The notes under the pieces were generated by a model. That model was not told the DNA's origin. It worked only from the letters and a program-made list of their open reading frames with translations, and did not search any database. Made by a program: the position numbers and the translations under genes. From a phage: 64,000 bases of DNA. Shown piece by piece: positions 13,947-20,331 of this stretch. The stretch lies in assembly GCA_037574385.1 (NCBI GenBank), contig GCA_037574385.1_4529.1. One strand, 5' to 3'. Position 1 is the first letter of the stretch. The number at the start of each line of letters is the position of its first letter.

Positions 13947-15047
13947 TTACGCTGTGAAGATTTTATCCCACATTGCAACAACTGCATCTCGGTTATACTT
14001 CTTCCATACTGCTTCAGCACGTTTAACTCGAGCTTCGTATGTGTCAGTGAATTCTAATACAGCTTTTGTGTAAAGCGCAACTACTTCTTTCTTAGGAGTA
14101 GAGGAATCAATTTCTACACGCACAGTATCTGGGTCATATTCGAATGTCGCATGCGGATAATCCTTAAAAACTAACTGAATTACAGGGACACCTTTAGAAA
14201 TGGCTTCAATAGAACTATTCTCTACCGTACCTGTGTCAGGACACGTATTAATAAGTGCTTTAGCTGTTTTAAGACGTTCCATAATTTCACTGTGTGGAGC
14301 ATCAATAATAACAGGATACTTAGCCGGTGGTGCCCATTTACTAGGACAGTATCCTGCGCCATTTTCGCCTAGTGCTTTAATCGCTTCAAGAGCAACATCA
14401 GTACGACGCATTTTAGTGTCATAACGTTGTGCACTAATAATCAGATCAGTCGCCGGAAGAACTTCAGGTTTCTCATTCAAACAAATAACCGGATAATCTT
14501 CGGCTTCAAACAACGGATTTGCTCGCCAATAATCATAATCAATTTTGTCAGTCAGACCTGAAGTCATATAACAATATTTGCGTTCAAATTCACGGAAGGC
14601 TTTAGTAGGAGCATAACTCTTACCACCGTTCTTATGAATTTGAATAGTCTGGTCCCAAATTTGAACAATGCCACGAGATACCGGCTCAAACGGTGTTGCC
14701 ATAAAATTCTTATGAACTTTAGAGAGACCTGCGTCTTTAATTGCCTGAACGGTTAGTTTAGTCGGTTCCATTGTAACAACGAAATCGTACTCATTAATGC
14801 CGGCTAGTTCAACAATCTTACGAGCCATAGTATAACTCATACCTAGACTGAATTTAGTCAGATGACCAACAGGATGATGATTAACCTTCCAATCACCAAA
14901 CGTGTCATTATCAAAGCCGATATAATCAATATCAGCACCGATGGACACAAGATATTTCAACACATTTAAATGTACTGCTTCAAGACCACCTTGTACACGT
15001 TCTGGGTTAAACGGGACTGCGCGAGATGGGATAAACATAACTTTCAT
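13947..15047 (-). CDS. GT-B fold glycosyltransferase (candidate DNA sugar transferase)
   Basis: 366 aa; N-terminal Rossmann segment and C-terminal ENSSIEAISKGVPVIQ resembling the GT4 E-x7-E donor-binding motif; occupies the rIIA-39 gap. Confidence 0.55.
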   Translation of the reverse strand: MKVMFIPSRAVPFNPERVQGGLEAVHLNVLKYLVSIGADIDYIGFDNDTFGDWKVNHHPVGHLTKFSLGMSYTMARKIVELAGINEYDFVVTMEPTKLTVQAIKDAGLSKVHKNFMATPFEPVSRGIVQIWDQTIQIHKNGGKSYAPTKAFREFERKYCYMTSGLTDKIDYDYWRANPLFEAEDYPVICLNEKPEVLPATDLIISAQRYDTKMRRTDVALEAIKALGENGAGYCPSKWAPPAKYPVIIDAPHSEIMERLKTAKALINTCPDTGTVENSSIEAISKGVPVIQLVFKDYPHATFEYDPDTVRVEIDSSTPKKEVVALYTKAVLEFTDTYEARVKRAEAVWKKYNRDAVVAMWDKIFTA

Positions 15048-15073: not shown

Positions 15074-15091
15074 AAGCTCCCGAAGGAGCTT
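15074..15091 (-). terminator. UUCG-tetraloop hairpin / terminator after gene 39
   Basis: Minus-strand RNA AAGCUCC-UUCG-GGAGCUU followed by U-rich tract. Confidence 0.5.
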
Positions 15092-16907
15092 AGGACATCC
15101 ATTCTTTACGAAGTTCTGAATCATCACCCAACAACATTTCAAAGAGTTCTTTCCAATTTTCAGGAAGTTTAACTACGTCGTACACAGGGTTTTGAATCAT
15201 TTCACGATATTCTGACTTTTCAAGGGAGCCCAATCCCTTGATGTATCGAATACTATGCTTAGGCAGTGTATCTTTAGCTTCTTCATACTCAGCTACAGTA
15301 TAAAACCATTTTTGAGTTTTGCCGATTTGTGCAATAATTACAGGTGTTTTAACAAAGCGAATACGTCCTTGTTCAAACAATTCAGGCCAATTACTAAAGA
15401 AAGCAAGCAAAGCCGGATAGATACTTCCAAGACCGTCATGATCGGCATCGGTCATAATTGCAATATTACGATAGTTCGTATTCTCTGCCTTTTCACCAAG
15501 AATAAGACCTGTGATAGCACAGATATCAAAGAGCTCTTTGTTCTTCATCATATCGGCATATGACATACCCCAGCTATTCATCACCTTACCACGTAATGGG
15601 AATCCGCCGTGTAGTTCACGGTCACGAACATCAATGAGATATCCAATTGCCGAATCACCTTCTGTTAAAAACAATGTCGTATCTGCATCTTTACCGCATT
15701 GGTTAGCTTTAATATGCTTATGAACCTTAGCTTTAGTTGCCTTTTTAGCTGCTTTAGTTTCTGCAGCCTTTTCTGCTGCCAATTTACGAGCTAATGCTGC
15801 TTCAACAATAGGCATAATCAAGGCTTCGTTTTTAAGAAGTGCCTGAGCAATTTTCTTAGCATCTAATTGGATATGATTACGAATATCACCATACGTTGAC
15901 GTTAAACGTTCTTTAGTCTGAGAATCAAAACGCATGTTGCTCATGTCTCTAATAAACATCAACATTGTGAGACATTCTTTAACACGAGCTTTAGTGACTT
16001 CAATACCCTTATATTTCTTTTTAATACCCGGCAAAAGATGTTCGCAAATATCATCCATTACACATTCAACATGATGACCACCATTTTTAGTATGGATGTT
16101 ATTCACATAAGTTAAATGACGGAAGCCATCCGGTGATGTTGTGAATGCTATAGAGACTTTATCATTTTCTTGAATGATGTTATCTTCACCAAATTGTTTA
16201 GCAAATCGTTTAAAATTGCCATCAACCTTTTTACCATTAAATGTGAACTTGATATCAGGATAAACGACTGCCAATGTTTGAAGTCGGTCTAAAGTAATAT
16301 CTAAATAAATTTGAGATAAATTATGCTCTTCAAATGAAGTGAAATCAGGAGTGAAGATTACTTTAGTGCCTTTACCTTTAGATTTCTTAGAAGACCATGA
16401 TTTGTTTTCCATTCCGTTTGAACAGTTAACAGTGATTTCATTTTCGCCATCTGACGTGATGCCTGTAAACAACGTAGAGAAGATATTAGTTAAACTACTC
16501 CCGACGCCGTTCATACCACCTGTCTTGCGTTCAGAGTCGTCACCAAAGTTACCACCGGCCTTTGGAATAGTCCAGGCTGCTACAGGCCCAGGAATTTGTT
16601 CACCCGTTTGGTCGGTAACTAAACCTTGAGGAATACCACGTCCGTTATCTTCCACTGAAACTTGATTATTTTTAATTTGCACATCAATTTTATTTGCAAA
16701 CTTAAATGATGTACGAATAGCTTCATCAACCGAGTTGTCAATAATCTCATCGATTAATTTAACCAGACCAGGAACATATTCAACTTGTTGATATTTACCA
16801 AACAAAAAACGCTCATGTGCTTCTTTAGCTGAAGAACCAATATACATACCACTACGTTTCTTAATATGTTCTACATCTGACAGTACCTTAATTTCATTTT
16901 TAATCAT
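15090..16907 (-). CDS. 39: DNA topoisomerase II large subunit (GyrB-like), gp39 and gp60 as one uninterrupted ORF
   Basis: 605 aa: GHKL ATPase N-domain plus Toprim region; length equals T4 gp39 + gp60. Confidence 0.95.
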   Translation of the reverse strand: MIKNEIKVLSDVEHIKKRSGMYIGSSAKEAHERFLFGKYQQVEYVPGLVKLIDEIIDNSVDEAIRTSFKFANKIDVQIKNNQVSVEDNGRGIPQGLVTDQTGEQIPGPVAAWTIPKAGGNFGDDSERKTGGMNGVGSSLTNIFSTLFTGITSDGENEITVNCSNGMENKSWSSKKSKGKGTKVIFTPDFTSFEEHNLSQIYLDITLDRLQTLAVVYPDIKFTFNGKKVDGNFKRFAKQFGEDNIIQENDKVSIAFTTSPDGFRHLTYVNNIHTKNGGHHVECVMDDICEHLLPGIKKKYKGIEVTKARVKECLTMLMFIRDMSNMRFDSQTKERLTSTYGDIRNHIQLDAKKIAQALLKNEALIMPIVEAALARKLAAEKAAETKAAKKATKAKVHKHIKANQCGKDADTTLFLTEGDSAIGYLIDVRDRELHGGFPLRGKVMNSWGMSYADMMKNKELFDICAITGLILGEKAENTNYRNIAIMTDADHDGLGSIYPALLAFFSNWPELFEQGRIRFVKTPVIIAQIGKTQKWFYTVAEYEEAKDTLPKHSIRYIKGLGSLEKSEYREMIQNPVYDVVKLPENWKELFEMLLGDDSELRKEWMS

Positions 16908-16956: not shown

Positions 16957-16972
16957 AAGGGCCGAAGCCCTT
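16957..16972 (-). terminator. UUCG-tetraloop hairpin at 3' end of upstream gene
   Basis: Minus-strand RNA AAGGGC-UUCG-GCCCUU then U-rich. Confidence 0.45.
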
Positions 16973-17396
16973 ATTTAAATTTAATTTTCTGAAGTGCATC
17001 AATTGCAGCCAAACGCCCTTGTTCACTTTTAACTGTAATGACCACATCGCCTGATACGATCACCGAACCATCAACAAATTCTATAGAGTCTTTTTTGAAA
17101 TCGACAGCTGTATCTGGTTCCGGAACTTCTTCAAAGAATTTAAATTCTGCACCATAAATCAGAATATCACCTTGCATACTATGAATAGTTCGGCCATAAT
17201 CGCCTACGGCTTCTACAGCAATCATTGAAACACCGTAACCAATCATCTCTTCCACAATAAAATCTTTAGACAATAAAGTAGTATGCAGATTAGTATTAAG
17301 ACGTTTACCAGTCGTATTAAGAATTCTCAAGAAATTATCTTCCTGTCCTTTGATAATACGGTATTTCTTGCCAATTTCAAAACCTTTAAAAGCCAT
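16971..17396 (-). CDS. hypothetical early protein (141 aa)
   Basis: ORF in operon orientation. Confidence 0.55.
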   Translation of the reverse strand: MAFKGFEIGKKYRIIKGQEDNFLRILNTTGKRLNTNLHTTLLSKDFIVEEMIGYGVSMIAVEAVGDYGRTIHSMQGDILIYGAEFKFFEEVPEPDTAVDFKKDSIEFVDGSVIVSGDVVITVKSEQGRLAAIDALQKIKFK

Positions 17397-17398
17397 AA

Positions 17399-17578
17399 TT
17401 ATCCCTTCTTAAGTAAGTCGTAAAAACCACCGTTCACATGTTTAGGAGCAGAAACCCGACGAGTAGACAGACGATGACATTCAGGGCAAACATCGTTTTC
17501 TCGTTCAGAAATCCTTTTAATTTTTTCATATTCATGACCACAATCTTCAGATTGACATTTATAGTCGTATAACGGCAT
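17399..17578 (-). CDS. FmdB-like zinc-ribbon protein (59 aa, below ORF-track threshold)
   Basis: Hand translation MPLYDYKCQSEDCGHEYEKIKRISERENDVCPECHRLSTRRVSAPKHVNGGFYDLLKKG; MP.Y.Y.C..CGH.FE...CP.C pattern typical of FmdB zinc ribbons; stop abuts next gene start. Confidence 0.5.
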   Translation of the reverse strand: MPLYDYKCQSEDCGHEYEKIKRISERENDVCPECHRLSTRRVSAPKHVNGGFYDLLKKG

Positions 17579-17580
17579 TA

Positions 17581-18009
17581 TTATTCCTTAAAATGTGTTT
17601 TCAACATTTGATACAAAGACCATGCCTGGTCGTTATTTTCGATAGTAATCGTCATCACCGGAAATTCGGTCAATTCATCAAGTTCTTCAGAGTCTTGCTC
17701 TTCAGACGCTTGATATGGATTTCCAACTTCATCAAAAAACTCTGCTTCACTAGTAGAGAGCCAGATAAAGTTTTCATCAAGAATATCACCACCAGTTGCG
17801 TATCCAACCATGCCAGTAGATGTCACAATTTTAGTAGGTCGACCAAGATGGTCAACATCTAATACTTTAAATGGTTCCATGCCAAGACGTCGTGCATAAA
17901 TCCCATTATCAGTGTGGTTTTTAATAAACTCTTCTTGGACACGTTTATCTTTAAATTGGTACCATGAGTTAACGCGGAATTTATTAGCCATTAGTAAGTT
18001 TCCTTCCAA
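17581..18009 (-). CDS. hypothetical early protein (142 aa)
   Basis: ORF in operon orientation. Confidence 0.5.
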
Positions 18010-18263
18010 TAAGTTGTACCATTTTCAGTGATTTCACGGAAGATACCATAGATAGGCATTTCATCACCGAGTTTTTCGTAAACGTAAACCACTTCAGTGT
18101 AGCATAAAAATTCAGTCCAGTTTTTCTGTACAACAACTAAATCAGGATTAAACAGAACATCTTCAAACTCATCGATGTTTGAATCAGTAGTTACGTTTTT
18201 AATGATTTGACGTTTCATAATATTCTCCTCTTGTTTTGATAGGTCTATAGTATCATAGACCAT
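17991..18263 (-). CDS. hypothetical early protein (90 aa)
   Basis: ORF in operon orientation. Confidence 0.5.
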
Positions 18264-18859: not shown

Positions 18860-19279
18860 TTATGCGAAAGCAGCCGGGCTATATTTTTTAATTTGGAATT
18901 CAGGAACTACCATGAACTGACCAGCGAAAACGATGTTATAAAGCTTAACACCATCTTCTACCCAACGGTCGCTAATAAATCCGGCGATTTGCTTAGTTTT
19001 CCATGGCGTTCCATCGGTTGCCGCAGCAATAGTGAATTCGTGGTCTTTTTCAACAGAAACTGATCTGCATAGTCCCCATTTGAACGCTTTTTCTTCTGGT
19101 TCAATGAATTGGCTTGAGACGTAGCCAATGTTGCCATCAGCATCACGAACTTTAACTTGATGTGGACTAAAGAGTCCACAACTTACAGAAAGAACTTCAA
19201 CCAACTTCCCAGCAACTTTAGAGCGAGAAGCAACAGATACATATACGTAATCACCAATAGAGAGATTTGCAATATTCAT
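18860..19279 (-). CDS. hypothetical protein, member of a 3-gene tandem paralog family
   Basis: C-terminal region shares ...GFISD.WVEDG.KLYNIVF.G.F.VV... with the next two genes. Confidence 0.6.
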   Translation of the reverse strand: MNIANLSIGDYVYVSVASRSKVAGKLVEVLSVSCGLFSPHQVKVRDADGNIGYVSSQFIEPEEKAFKWGLCRSVSVEKDHEFTIAAATDGTPWKTKQIAGFISDRWVEDGVKLYNIVFAGQFMVVPEFQIKKYSPAAFA

Positions 19280-19288
19280 AATAATTCC

Positions 19289-19774
19289 TTAAGCTTTACG
19301 AGGAGACACATAACGAGTGATTTCGGATTCTTTAACAACTCTGAAGTCACCTAAGAATACGATATTGTATAACTTTTCACCATCTTCAACCCATTGGTCA
19401 CTAATGAAGCCACACATAGTATCAGTTTTGCTTGGATAACCGTATTCATCGATGAAGTCAAATTCTTTATCAGTCTGGAATTCAACGCCTTTGCAAAGGG
19501 CCCATTTGAACTGTACATTATGCTCTGTGGATTCAACTTTTTCTCTTGAAGCAAAAGCACTACTCACAGGCGTTTCCAAGAACTTTGCACGAACATAAGC
19601 AAATTTGGTTTCCTGTGTCCCAAAACTAGGAATAATACGAACCTTTACCTCAGAATCTTCATCTTTAACGCCTTCTTTAAGTTGAATACTTACAACTTCG
19701 ACCAATTTTCCTGCGGCTTTAGAACGAGATTTGTTAGATACGCGAACGATTTCACCAATAATACCAAGATTCAT
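19289..19774 (-). CDS. hypothetical protein, tandem paralog 2 (start moved to MNLGIIGEIV)
   Basis: Track N-terminus (MLYIQGWMEYNEF) is the translated promoter repeat; internal Met is the likely start. Shares the C-terminal motif. Confidence 0.6.
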   Translation of the reverse strand: MNLGIIGEIVRVSNKSRSKAAGKLVEVVSIQLKEGVKDEDSEVKVRIIPSFGTQETKFAYVRAKFLETPVSSAFASREKVESTEHNVQFKWALCKGVEFQTDKEFDFIDEYGYPSKTDTMCGFISDQWVEDGEKLYNIVFLGDFRVVKESEITRYVSPRKA

Positions 19775-19804
19775 AATTTCTCTCTCTTTGTTTAAATTGA
19801 ATTC

Positions 19805-19833
19805 ATTATACTCCATCCATCCTTGGATGTACA
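19805..19833 (-). promoter_or_regulatory. early promoter-hairpin repeat, copy with compensatory stem variant
   Basis: Minus strand TGTACA-[CATCC AAGGAT GGATG]-GAG-TATAAT; stem CATCC/GGATG where the other copies have CAACC/GGTTG. Confidence 0.55.
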
Positions 19834-19836
19834 ACA

Positions 19837-20331
19837 TTAATTAAGGATATTAACCACAGCACTACGTGGAACTACACTAAAATCACCTGCATGAACAACG
19901 TTCAGAAGTTCAACACCGTCTTCAATCCACTGGTCAGTTACCCATCCATTTACTGGACCTGCGAAAGGACGTCGAATTGAAACATATTTACACAGCAAAT
20001 CAGTAGGCTCAATAGGCTTAATCAGAGTACCGTACATACAAGCGATATCCATATCAATACAGATGTCTTTAACGGGTTCTACTTCTTCAATCAACAGTTC
20101 AAAGTCTGTGCTTGGAAGGGCGGTAGTGGAAATTGTACCATATGAATTTTTAATTTCTAAGAATAACCAAGGGCCTTCAGCTTGTTTGATGAAGTTAACA
20201 ATAGTGAAACTATTGCCTTGAGTGGCACCTAAAATTTCACAAAACTTTTCGTAAGCTCGCACTGAAGCACTGTACCAGTTGATTTGTTTTTCGTCTTTCA
20301 GGATGTAAGTAGCCGTAGTATTGATATTCAT
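19837..20331 (-). CDS. hypothetical protein, tandem paralog 3 (164 aa); positional candidate for MotB-like protein
   Basis: Shares C-terminal ...GWVTDQWIEDGVELLNVVHAGDFSVV... motif; T4 has motB in this neighbourhood; not verified. Confidence 0.55.
   Translation of the reverse strand: MNINTTATYILKDEKQINWYSASVRAYEKFCEILGATQGNSFTIVNFIKQAEGPWLFLEIKNSYGTISTTALPSTDFELLIEEVEPVKDICIDMDIACMYGTLIKPIEPTDLLCKYVSIRRPFAGPVNGWVTDQWIEDGVELLNVVHAGDFSVVPRSAVVNILN

Follow-up and report, generated by a model that had tools for sequence, protein, structure and literature searches.

Gp39.2 of bacteriophage T4 has been reported to modulate the host chaperonin GroEL, and its gene to rescue both phage growth and the temperature sensitivity of groEL and groES mutants, in the passages that two accounts devote to it (PMC4396842; PMC5153855). 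In the passage by Georgopoulos, Gp39.2 is described as a 58-amino-acid peptide, genetic and biochemical studies are said to suggest that it shifts GroEL to an open conformation that binds host or phage co-chaperones of the GroES type, and a T4 39.2 deletion is described as fully blocked in specific groEL mutant hosts (PMC5153855). It should be noted that both passages come from one research circle and cite the same study, in which the protein appears as NwgI (Ang and Georgopoulos, 2012, Genetics 190:989). Gp39.2 is no replacement for GroES, and is reported instead to favor GroES binding. It shares its strategy, the adaptation of host GroEL to the folding of phage proteins, with Gp31 of T4, CocO of RB49 and phage GroES proteins; however, the latter are heptamers of the Cpn10 beta-barrel, whereas Gp39.2 is a zinc ribbon. 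In the NwgI work of 2012, the gene was reportedly first selected from an RB69 library; the RB69 allele itself is said to have been tested, and the homologues of RB43 and RB49 are said to have behaved alike.

The other experimentally studied member of the same family is Ruc (Rv0991c) of Mycobacterium tuberculosis, in which an N-terminal four-cysteine zinc ribbon is followed by a disordered C-terminus, and which shares the HrcA regulon with GroES, GroEL1 and GroEL2 (PMC7448276). Upon oxidation and release of zinc, Ruc becomes a holdase that co-operates with DnaK; its long, hydrophilic, disordered C-terminus is required for this, and an N-terminal construct ending in ...VVFKG is inactive (PMC7448276). 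The homologues of Ruc adjoin DnaK, DnaJ, GrpE, ClpB or HrcA genes in several phyla, and GroES/GroEL genes in some, and the tails within the family range from about 7 to 61 residues (PMC7448276). No Pfam family is named and phages are never mentioned in that paper, and no paper linking Gp39.2 with Ruc was found in the literature searched. Both experimentally studied family members, Gp39.2 and Ruc, are connected to chaperone systems. Here, we analyze a window of 64,000 nucleotides of phage DNA (contig GCA_037574385.1_4529.1), in which a sequence-only reading had pointed out a small zinc-ribbon gene, and compare this locus with the systems described above.

The 39.2 gene and its surroundings

The gene occupies positions 17399..17578; it is read from the minus strand, which the sequence-only reading had left unstated. 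With ATG as start and TAA as stop codon, it codes for a product of 59 amino acids, MPLYDYKCQSEDCGHEYEKIKRISERENDVCPECHRLSTRRVSAPKHVNGGFYDLLKKG. Over the 3 kb around the gene, Mosigvirus genomes (Shf125875 and phiC120 among them) share 98% identity with the window, which by its sequence is that of an RB69-like Mosigvirus. The encoded protein is 100% identical to RB69p006 (NP_861696.1; RB69ORF006c), whose record bears the name 'FmdB-like transcriptional regulator' and the remark 'similar to T4 AAD42464'. Compared with the 58-amino-acid Gp39.2 of re-sequenced T4 (MT984581), 47 of 57 residues are identical (82%) over the full length, with E=2e-37, and the equivalent gene is named 39.2 in the records of PP01 and T4. 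As judged from these comparisons, the open reading frame (ORF) corresponds to T4 gene 39.2 and is its ortholog of the Mosigvirus (RB69) type; it encodes a small protein of the FmdB/Zn_ribbon_8 type with a single putative zinc site. The two proteins agree in length, cysteine pattern and tail motif, and their genes in the place upstream of gene 39; they differ by 10 substitutions and by one extra C-terminal residue in the window and RB69 protein (KKG instead of KG). The gene had been called unlisted, which is true of the ORF track, where 59 amino acids fall short of the default of 60, but not of the RB69 RefSeq record, which annotates RB69p006. It is therefore a gene already known, annotated in RB69 and with a T4 ortholog characterized in 2012.

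In the window, the order of genes is cef (17991..18263), goF (17581..18009), 39.2, an ORF005-like gene and gene 39, all on the minus strand, and the order cef-goF-39.2-39 is common to RB69, PP01, T4, ECML-134 and RZ. On a larger scale, the arrangement dexA...motB...cef-goF-39.2-(39.1 or goF-like ORF)-39 is shared by Tequatrovirus, Mosigvirus and Gaprivervirus, while Krischvirus has a shorter version, dexA-Zn ribbon-39. In Jiaodavirus, the zinc-ribbon gene is also located inside the dexA-39 interval, and in Vequintavirinae and other large phages homologues are found in different early-gene contexts.

The upstream neighbor is the ortholog of goF (comC-alpha), as indicated by phrog_622 (3.1e-37), the goF phrogs and the RB69 annotation; it has 136 amino acids from the annotated RB69 start, and the listed ORF has 142 from an upstream TTG. 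Downstream, 39.2 is followed in Mosigvirus by a goF-like ORF of 141 amino acids (16971..17396, minus strand; RB69p005 type), whereas in T4 it is followed by 39.1. This 141-amino-acid protein also matches phrog_622 (E=8.8e-22), so that both ORFs that flank 39.2 belong to phrog_622, and the direct BLASTP comparison between them is barely significant (E=0.022). The two may be ancient goF duplicates that bracket 39.2 in Mosigvirus.

Gene 39, which served as a landmark of synteny, encodes the 605-amino-acid large subunit of topoisomerase II (15090..16907, minus strand). It is of the unsplit RB69/T2 type, without the gene 60 split or the mobA insertion of T4. After it comes a hypothetical gene of the RB69ORF003c type, encoding 366 amino acids (13947..15047, minus strand), which is absent from this place in T4. 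On the other side of the locus, three tandem ORFs on the minus strand (18860..19279, 19289..19837 and 19837..20331) have a conserved C-terminal block in common, seen for instance in GFISDRWVEDGVKLYNIVFAGQFMVVPE, GFISDQWVEDGEKLYNIVFLGDFRVVKE and GWVTDQWIEDGVELLNVVHAGDFSVVPR. The three are an array of MotB-like paralogues, in which RB69 names two genes MotB-like and one motB.1.

Could such a short ORF have arisen by chance, with no gene at all behind it? It has only 59 codons, short ORFs are plentiful in an A+T-rich genome, and as many as 52 ORFs of at least 30 amino acids overlap the 5.5-kb stretch around 39.2; consequently, its length alone is within chance. However, the protein matches Pfam family PF09723 with E=5e-13, tblastn finds homologues in 956 phage records, nearly full length in 913 of them, the ORF is tightly packed between its neighbors, and a Shine-Dalgarno sequence precedes it. 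In addition, the comparisons drawing on the orthologues of PP01, ECML-134, RZ and re-sequenced T4 gave dN/dS values (Nei-Gojobori) of 0.02-0.11 between genera with dS of at least 0.45, far below 1, synonymous sites between genera being heavily or fully saturated. The gene is under strong purifying selection. Taken together, the score of the profile model, the conservation, the dN/dS values, the packing and the Shine-Dalgarno sequence refute the reading as a chance ORF, the probability of which is negligible, and the earlier judgement that the gene is very likely real was sound. Two further ORFs overlapping it, 17434..17541 on the minus strand and 17438..17572 on the plus strand, are without support and were rejected as shadows of the conserved 39.2 frame.

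Expression context

The dexA-39 region of T4 is pre-replicative, that is, early or middle. In the window, the translation start region of 39.2 (17579..17592, minus strand) contains the TAA of the goF-like gene (17581-17583), which ends 2 nt before the ATG of 39.2, and the Shine-Dalgarno-like AAGGA, which sits 6 nt upstream of this ATG, inside the 3' end of the goF-like gene. The start context TTTAAGGAATAAT(T/A)ATG is also present in T4 and ECML-134. At the other end, the stop codon of 39.2 (TAA, 17399-17401) is separated by 2 nt from the ATG of the 141-amino-acid ORF, just as the sequence-only reading had described. The layout of the goF stop and the 39.2 start suggests translational coupling.

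By consensus scan, a G+C-rich terminator-like hairpin was found at 16957..16972 on the minus strand; its loop is UUCG, a T-run comes after it, and its palindromic stem gives a score on either strand. It would be the likely 3' end of a cef-goF-39.2-ORF005 unit, ahead of gene 39. Terminator-like sites are enriched in the scan, with 11 found and 3.5 +/- 1.9 expected. A second G+C-rich tetraloop hairpin of the UUCG type with a T-run is located at 15074-15091, and the two hairpins bracket gene 39 on the minus strand. Promoter-like matches were at the shuffled background (23 vs. 21 +/- 5.4), and consequently no dedicated 39.2 promoter is claimed. Neither a convincing promoter nor a convincing terminator was found between cef, goF, 39.2 and the downstream 141-amino-acid ORF. 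Therefore, the 2-nt gaps between stop and start codons, the lack of internal signals and the hairpin at 16957-16972 together suggest that these four genes form one polycistronic, translationally coupled unit.

Zinc-ribbon family and predicted structure

The assignment to the FmdB-type zinc ribbons, which had been made from the letters alone, is borne out by profile search, since the protein passes the curated cut-offs of both models of the family. Pfam PF09723 (Zn_ribbon_8) scores 49.3 bits, compared with a gathering cut-off of 34.4, and NCBIfam TIGR02605 (FmdB family zinc ribbon protein) scores 48.0 bits, compared with a cut-off of 31.3, in a match that spans only positions 1-42 of the 52 of the model. 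PHROG 1076 is matched with E=1.9e-12. The signature MP.Y.Y.C..CGH.FE...CP.C proposed before is correct in part. The protein starts with MPLYDYKC, in accordance with the family start MP-x-Y-x-(Y/F)-x-C at residue 1, and CPxC is present; however, the first knuckle is C-x4-C (CQSEDC) rather than CxxC, and GHEYE takes the place of GH.FE.

In an alignment of 53 homologues, M1, C8, C31 and C34 are invariant, and P2, Y4, Y6, C13 and R26 are each kept in at least 90%. The loss of the four cysteines in related phages, which had been named as the observation that would speak against the gene, was not seen. The few sequences without C13 are of the Krischvirus type and have His as the second ligand (C-x2-H-G), which makes a CHCC variant of the ribbon; as far as the alignment tells, this is a conservative swap of zinc ligand. 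Phage JSE and its close relatives have an extra Cys after the CPxC knuckle.

The AlphaFold2 model, for which the 53-sequence alignment was the input, has a mean pLDDT of 78.8. Residues 1-40 (pLDDT about 89) contain four short strands (3-8, 16-20, 28-30 and 37-40), and according to the model this part is a four-stranded zinc ribbon with the predicted ligands C8, C13, C31 and C34. Residues 41-59 have pLDDT values of 53-62 and are probably a flexible tail, in which the family motif SAP...GGFYD is found. The corresponding phage segment, SAPKHVNGGFYDLL, aligns with SAPxFRLKGGGWYETDF of longer family members, which were drawn from a library of 1.84 billion proteins (252 representatives at E <=1e-3). 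Beyond the GGGWYE motif, the longer, presumably cellular members add 30-100 hydrophilic low-complexity residues, where the phage protein stops; it ends about 8 residues past GGFY and has no Ser/Gly-rich 'SSSS' region at its C-terminus, a part that a score above the model cut-off does not depend on. As the tail motif is aligned and no extension follows, Gp39.2 is a complete but tail-less core of the FmdB family. In short, it resembles this family in the MPxYxYxC start, the four cysteines and the SAP...GG(F/W)Y segment, and differs from it in the C-x4-C knuckle, the missing Ser/Gly-rich tail and the absence of a formamidase context. The tail segment GGFYDLL was also set beside GGIVL of the GroES mobile loop; mimicry was considered, and no claim is made.

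When the predicted structure was searched against PDB with Foldseek, no match fell below E=0.3; all that came up were generic zinc ribbons, among them the MCM N-terminal domain, RpoP and RbpA. The sequence matches in PDB are C2H2 zinc-finger arrays, which were judged spurious because of their repeated Y-C-x-C-G-K-x-F knuckle. Among the predicted viral structures, the best match is T4 Q01434, followed by other FmdB-type phage proteins. The predicted fold confirms the family and gives no independent functional clue. PADLOC returned no defense-system match for the 39.2 locus.

The T4 reference record

In the T4 RefSeq record NC_000866.4 (= AF158101.6, with the M89919 sequence), 39.2 is annotated with 45 amino acids only, and the UniProt entry Q01434 ('Uncharacterized 5.1 kDa protein in Gp39-comCA intergenic region') inherits this version. 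However, 13 other records have one common version of the 39.2/39.1 region, which over 341 nt differs from RefSeq at about 14 positions (95.9% identity). Eleven of them are labelled T4 or T4T (including HM137666, KJ477684-6, MT984581, OZ209023, OZ209057, OL964735 and OZ035787), and the others are RB55 and RB59. In MT984581 and HM137666, the two that were aligned, one T of RefSeq is absent, which results in a 58-amino-acid ORF, MPLYDYKCQSKDCAKEYEKIKKISERDTDVCPDCHRLAVRLVSAPKHVNGGFYDLLKG, in agreement with the '58-amino-acid peptide' of the literature (PMC5153855). These clustered differences also affect the beginning of 39.1, where RefSeq loses an N-terminal start resembling a signal peptide and lipobox, MKYINRSIAALVLAVSLIGC. 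To judge from these alignments, the 45-amino-acid entry reflects differences found in RefSeq alone, which are probably sequencing errors. The RefSeq and UniProt entries for 39.2 are contradicted by every re-sequenced T4 genome examined.

Cellular and jumbo-phage relatives

For the comparison with Ruc, its N-terminus was rebuilt from the published primers, which cover residues 1-18, residues 23-40 and the AVGVVFKG end; the mutated Cys codons were restored, and the rebuilt zinc ribbon carries X at five uncovered positions. This sequence is matched by the same two models as the 39.2 protein, PF09723 with 49.4 bits and TIGR02605 with 58.4 bits, at a pairwise identity to the window protein of about 23%. 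The two proteins are alike in having a zinc ribbon of the same profile families and a tie to the Hsp60/Hsp70 chaperone network. They differ in that Ruc is about twice as long, needs its disordered C-terminal half for holdase activity, becomes active upon oxidation and co-operates with DnaK, whereas Gp39.2 consists of the core without the tail, and modulation of GroEL is what has been reported for it.

We also sampled the neighborhoods of three cellular family members, and chaperone genes are absent from all three; therefore, the association of cellular members with chaperones is at best partial. One of them, from a Geminicoccaceae metagenome-assembled genome (MAG), is located in a formamidase arrangement, fmdA-amiS/ureI-fmdB, the source of the 'regulator' name of the family. 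The other two adjoin a flavoprotein and a rhomboid protease.

In two jumbo phages, vB_Ec-M-J (Asteriusvirus) and fHe-Yen9-04 (Eneladusvirus), a zinc-ribbon homologue is located immediately upstream of a gene annotated as the co-chaperonin GroES. Both GroES neighbors are true Cpn10 proteins (PF00166, E=2e-16 and 1e-16), and the zinc-ribbon proteins of the two phages each score above the PF09723 cut-off. The same Zn_ribbon_8-Cpn10 pair was found on five metagenomic contigs of the GAP32/Rak2-like clade, which gives 7 loci in total, and the zinc-ribbon proteins of these loci are about 33-42% identical to the window protein. The block consists of a DNA polymerase gene, three ORFs, the zinc ribbon and Cpn10. 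Since it is one conserved syntenic block, the pair should be counted as one evolutionary observation, not seven. Zinc ribbon and Cpn10 look like a conserved two-gene module of the GAP32/Rak2-like jumbo phages, as far as gene order can tell, and such adjacency is what would be expected of a zinc ribbon that works with GroEL/GroES. In the T-even phages, 39.2 adjoins neither gene 31 nor any chaperone gene.

Function of the 39.2 product

Given the 100% identity of the window protein to that of RB69 and its 82% identity to T4 Gp39.2, it is reasonable to transfer the reported GroEL function to it, and we consider it likely that the 39.2 ortholog of the window encodes a modulator of host GroEL like T4 Gp39.2 (NwgI). 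The product would probably be translated from a polycistronic mRNA of the dexA-39 region that spans cef, goF and 39.2. It would then act on host GroEL and tilt the equilibrium between open and closed forms to the open one, which would accept a co-chaperonin, either host GroES or phage Gp31. In this way, the folding of phage proteins by GroEL, classically that of the major capsid protein, could still work where the host GroEL matches poorly. The contact with the chaperone may be made through the rigid zinc ribbon and the conserved SAP...GG(F/W)Y segment. The sequence-only reading had guessed at a regulator or inhibitor of a host protein, which is right in kind, as the T4 ortholog is a reported GroEL modulator; the reported target is the chaperonin, and not the transcription apparatus as the label in the records implies.

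That label raises the question of whether the 39.2 protein could instead regulate transcription, acting on RNA polymerase or DNA in the early-to-middle switch. Many records bear the name 'FmdB-like transcriptional regulator', phrog_1076 carries the category 'transcription regulation', goF, motB-like genes and other modulators of expression surround the gene, and there is a weak, non-significant fold likeness to the RNA polymerase-binding proteins RpoP/Rpb12 and RbpA (E>0.3). However, the label derives from an unproven 'putative regulator', FmdB, adjoining formamidase, and no experimental support for such a role was found in the literature searched. Pfam and NCBIfam show no DNA- or polymerase-binding domain beyond the ribbon, Foldseek against PDB matched no transcription factor significantly, and the sole experiments reported on the ortholog implicate GroEL. 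Transcription regulation therefore seems very improbable to us, and 'FmdB-like transcriptional regulator' is probably a misnomer. Phenotypes in groEL and groES mutants could also be indirect, caused through the heat-shock response or the levels of GroEL/GroES while the protein targets some other host protein. Unexpected host targets are common among the small early proteins of T4, for example 55.1 and 55.2, and no report of direct physical binding between Gp39.2 and GroEL was found in the literature searched. Nevertheless, a direct effect is favored by the allele specificity and by the 'biochemical studies' to which the passage by Georgopoulos refers (PMC5153855), and the pairing of zinc ribbon and GroES in jumbo phages points to the chaperonin system, so that the chance of another target is very small.

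The relationship with Ruc suggests yet another function, that of a stand-alone, redox-activated holdase in which oxidation frees the zinc and a disordered segment holds clients for DnaK. The shared profile families, the four cysteines and the 19 C-terminal residues of low confidence, which are probably flexible and within the range of 7-61 residues seen for tails in the family, are in its favor. However, the phage protein has no tail of the long hydrophilic kind that Ruc requires, and it is consequently unlikely to work like Ruc; the roughly 17-19 residues after the ribbon carry a conserved aromatic motif and are not of hydrophilic low complexity. Moreover, the allele-specific phenotypes of groEL/groES fit a modulator better than a general holdase. 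We thus hold a Ruc-like holdase to be improbable, and modulation of GroEL remains the preferred function.

Implications

For the window itself, the finding matters little, as the gene was annotated in RB69 and characterized in T4 before. It matters more for the names in the records, since 'FmdB-like transcriptional regulator' conflicts with the only experimental data, those on a GroEL modulator. In addition, Gp39.2, Ruc and the zinc ribbon-GroES pair of the jumbo phages belong to one profile family and all touch chaperones, which suggests a common, testable role. A tentative idea, which we regard as rather doubtful at present, is that the FmdB/Zn_ribbon_8 core, that is, the ribbon and the SAP...GG(F/W)Y segment, might be a general module for docking to chaperones, to which Ruc-like members would add a disordered client-binding tail, and of which phages would repeatedly have retained a form without the tail to tune the chaperonin cycle, namely Gp39.2 in the T-even phages and the zinc ribbon-GroES module in the GAP32-like jumbo phages. 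If this were true, many phage annotations as 'FmdB-like transcriptional regulator' would be wrong, and a very widespread bacterial family would gain a testable role.
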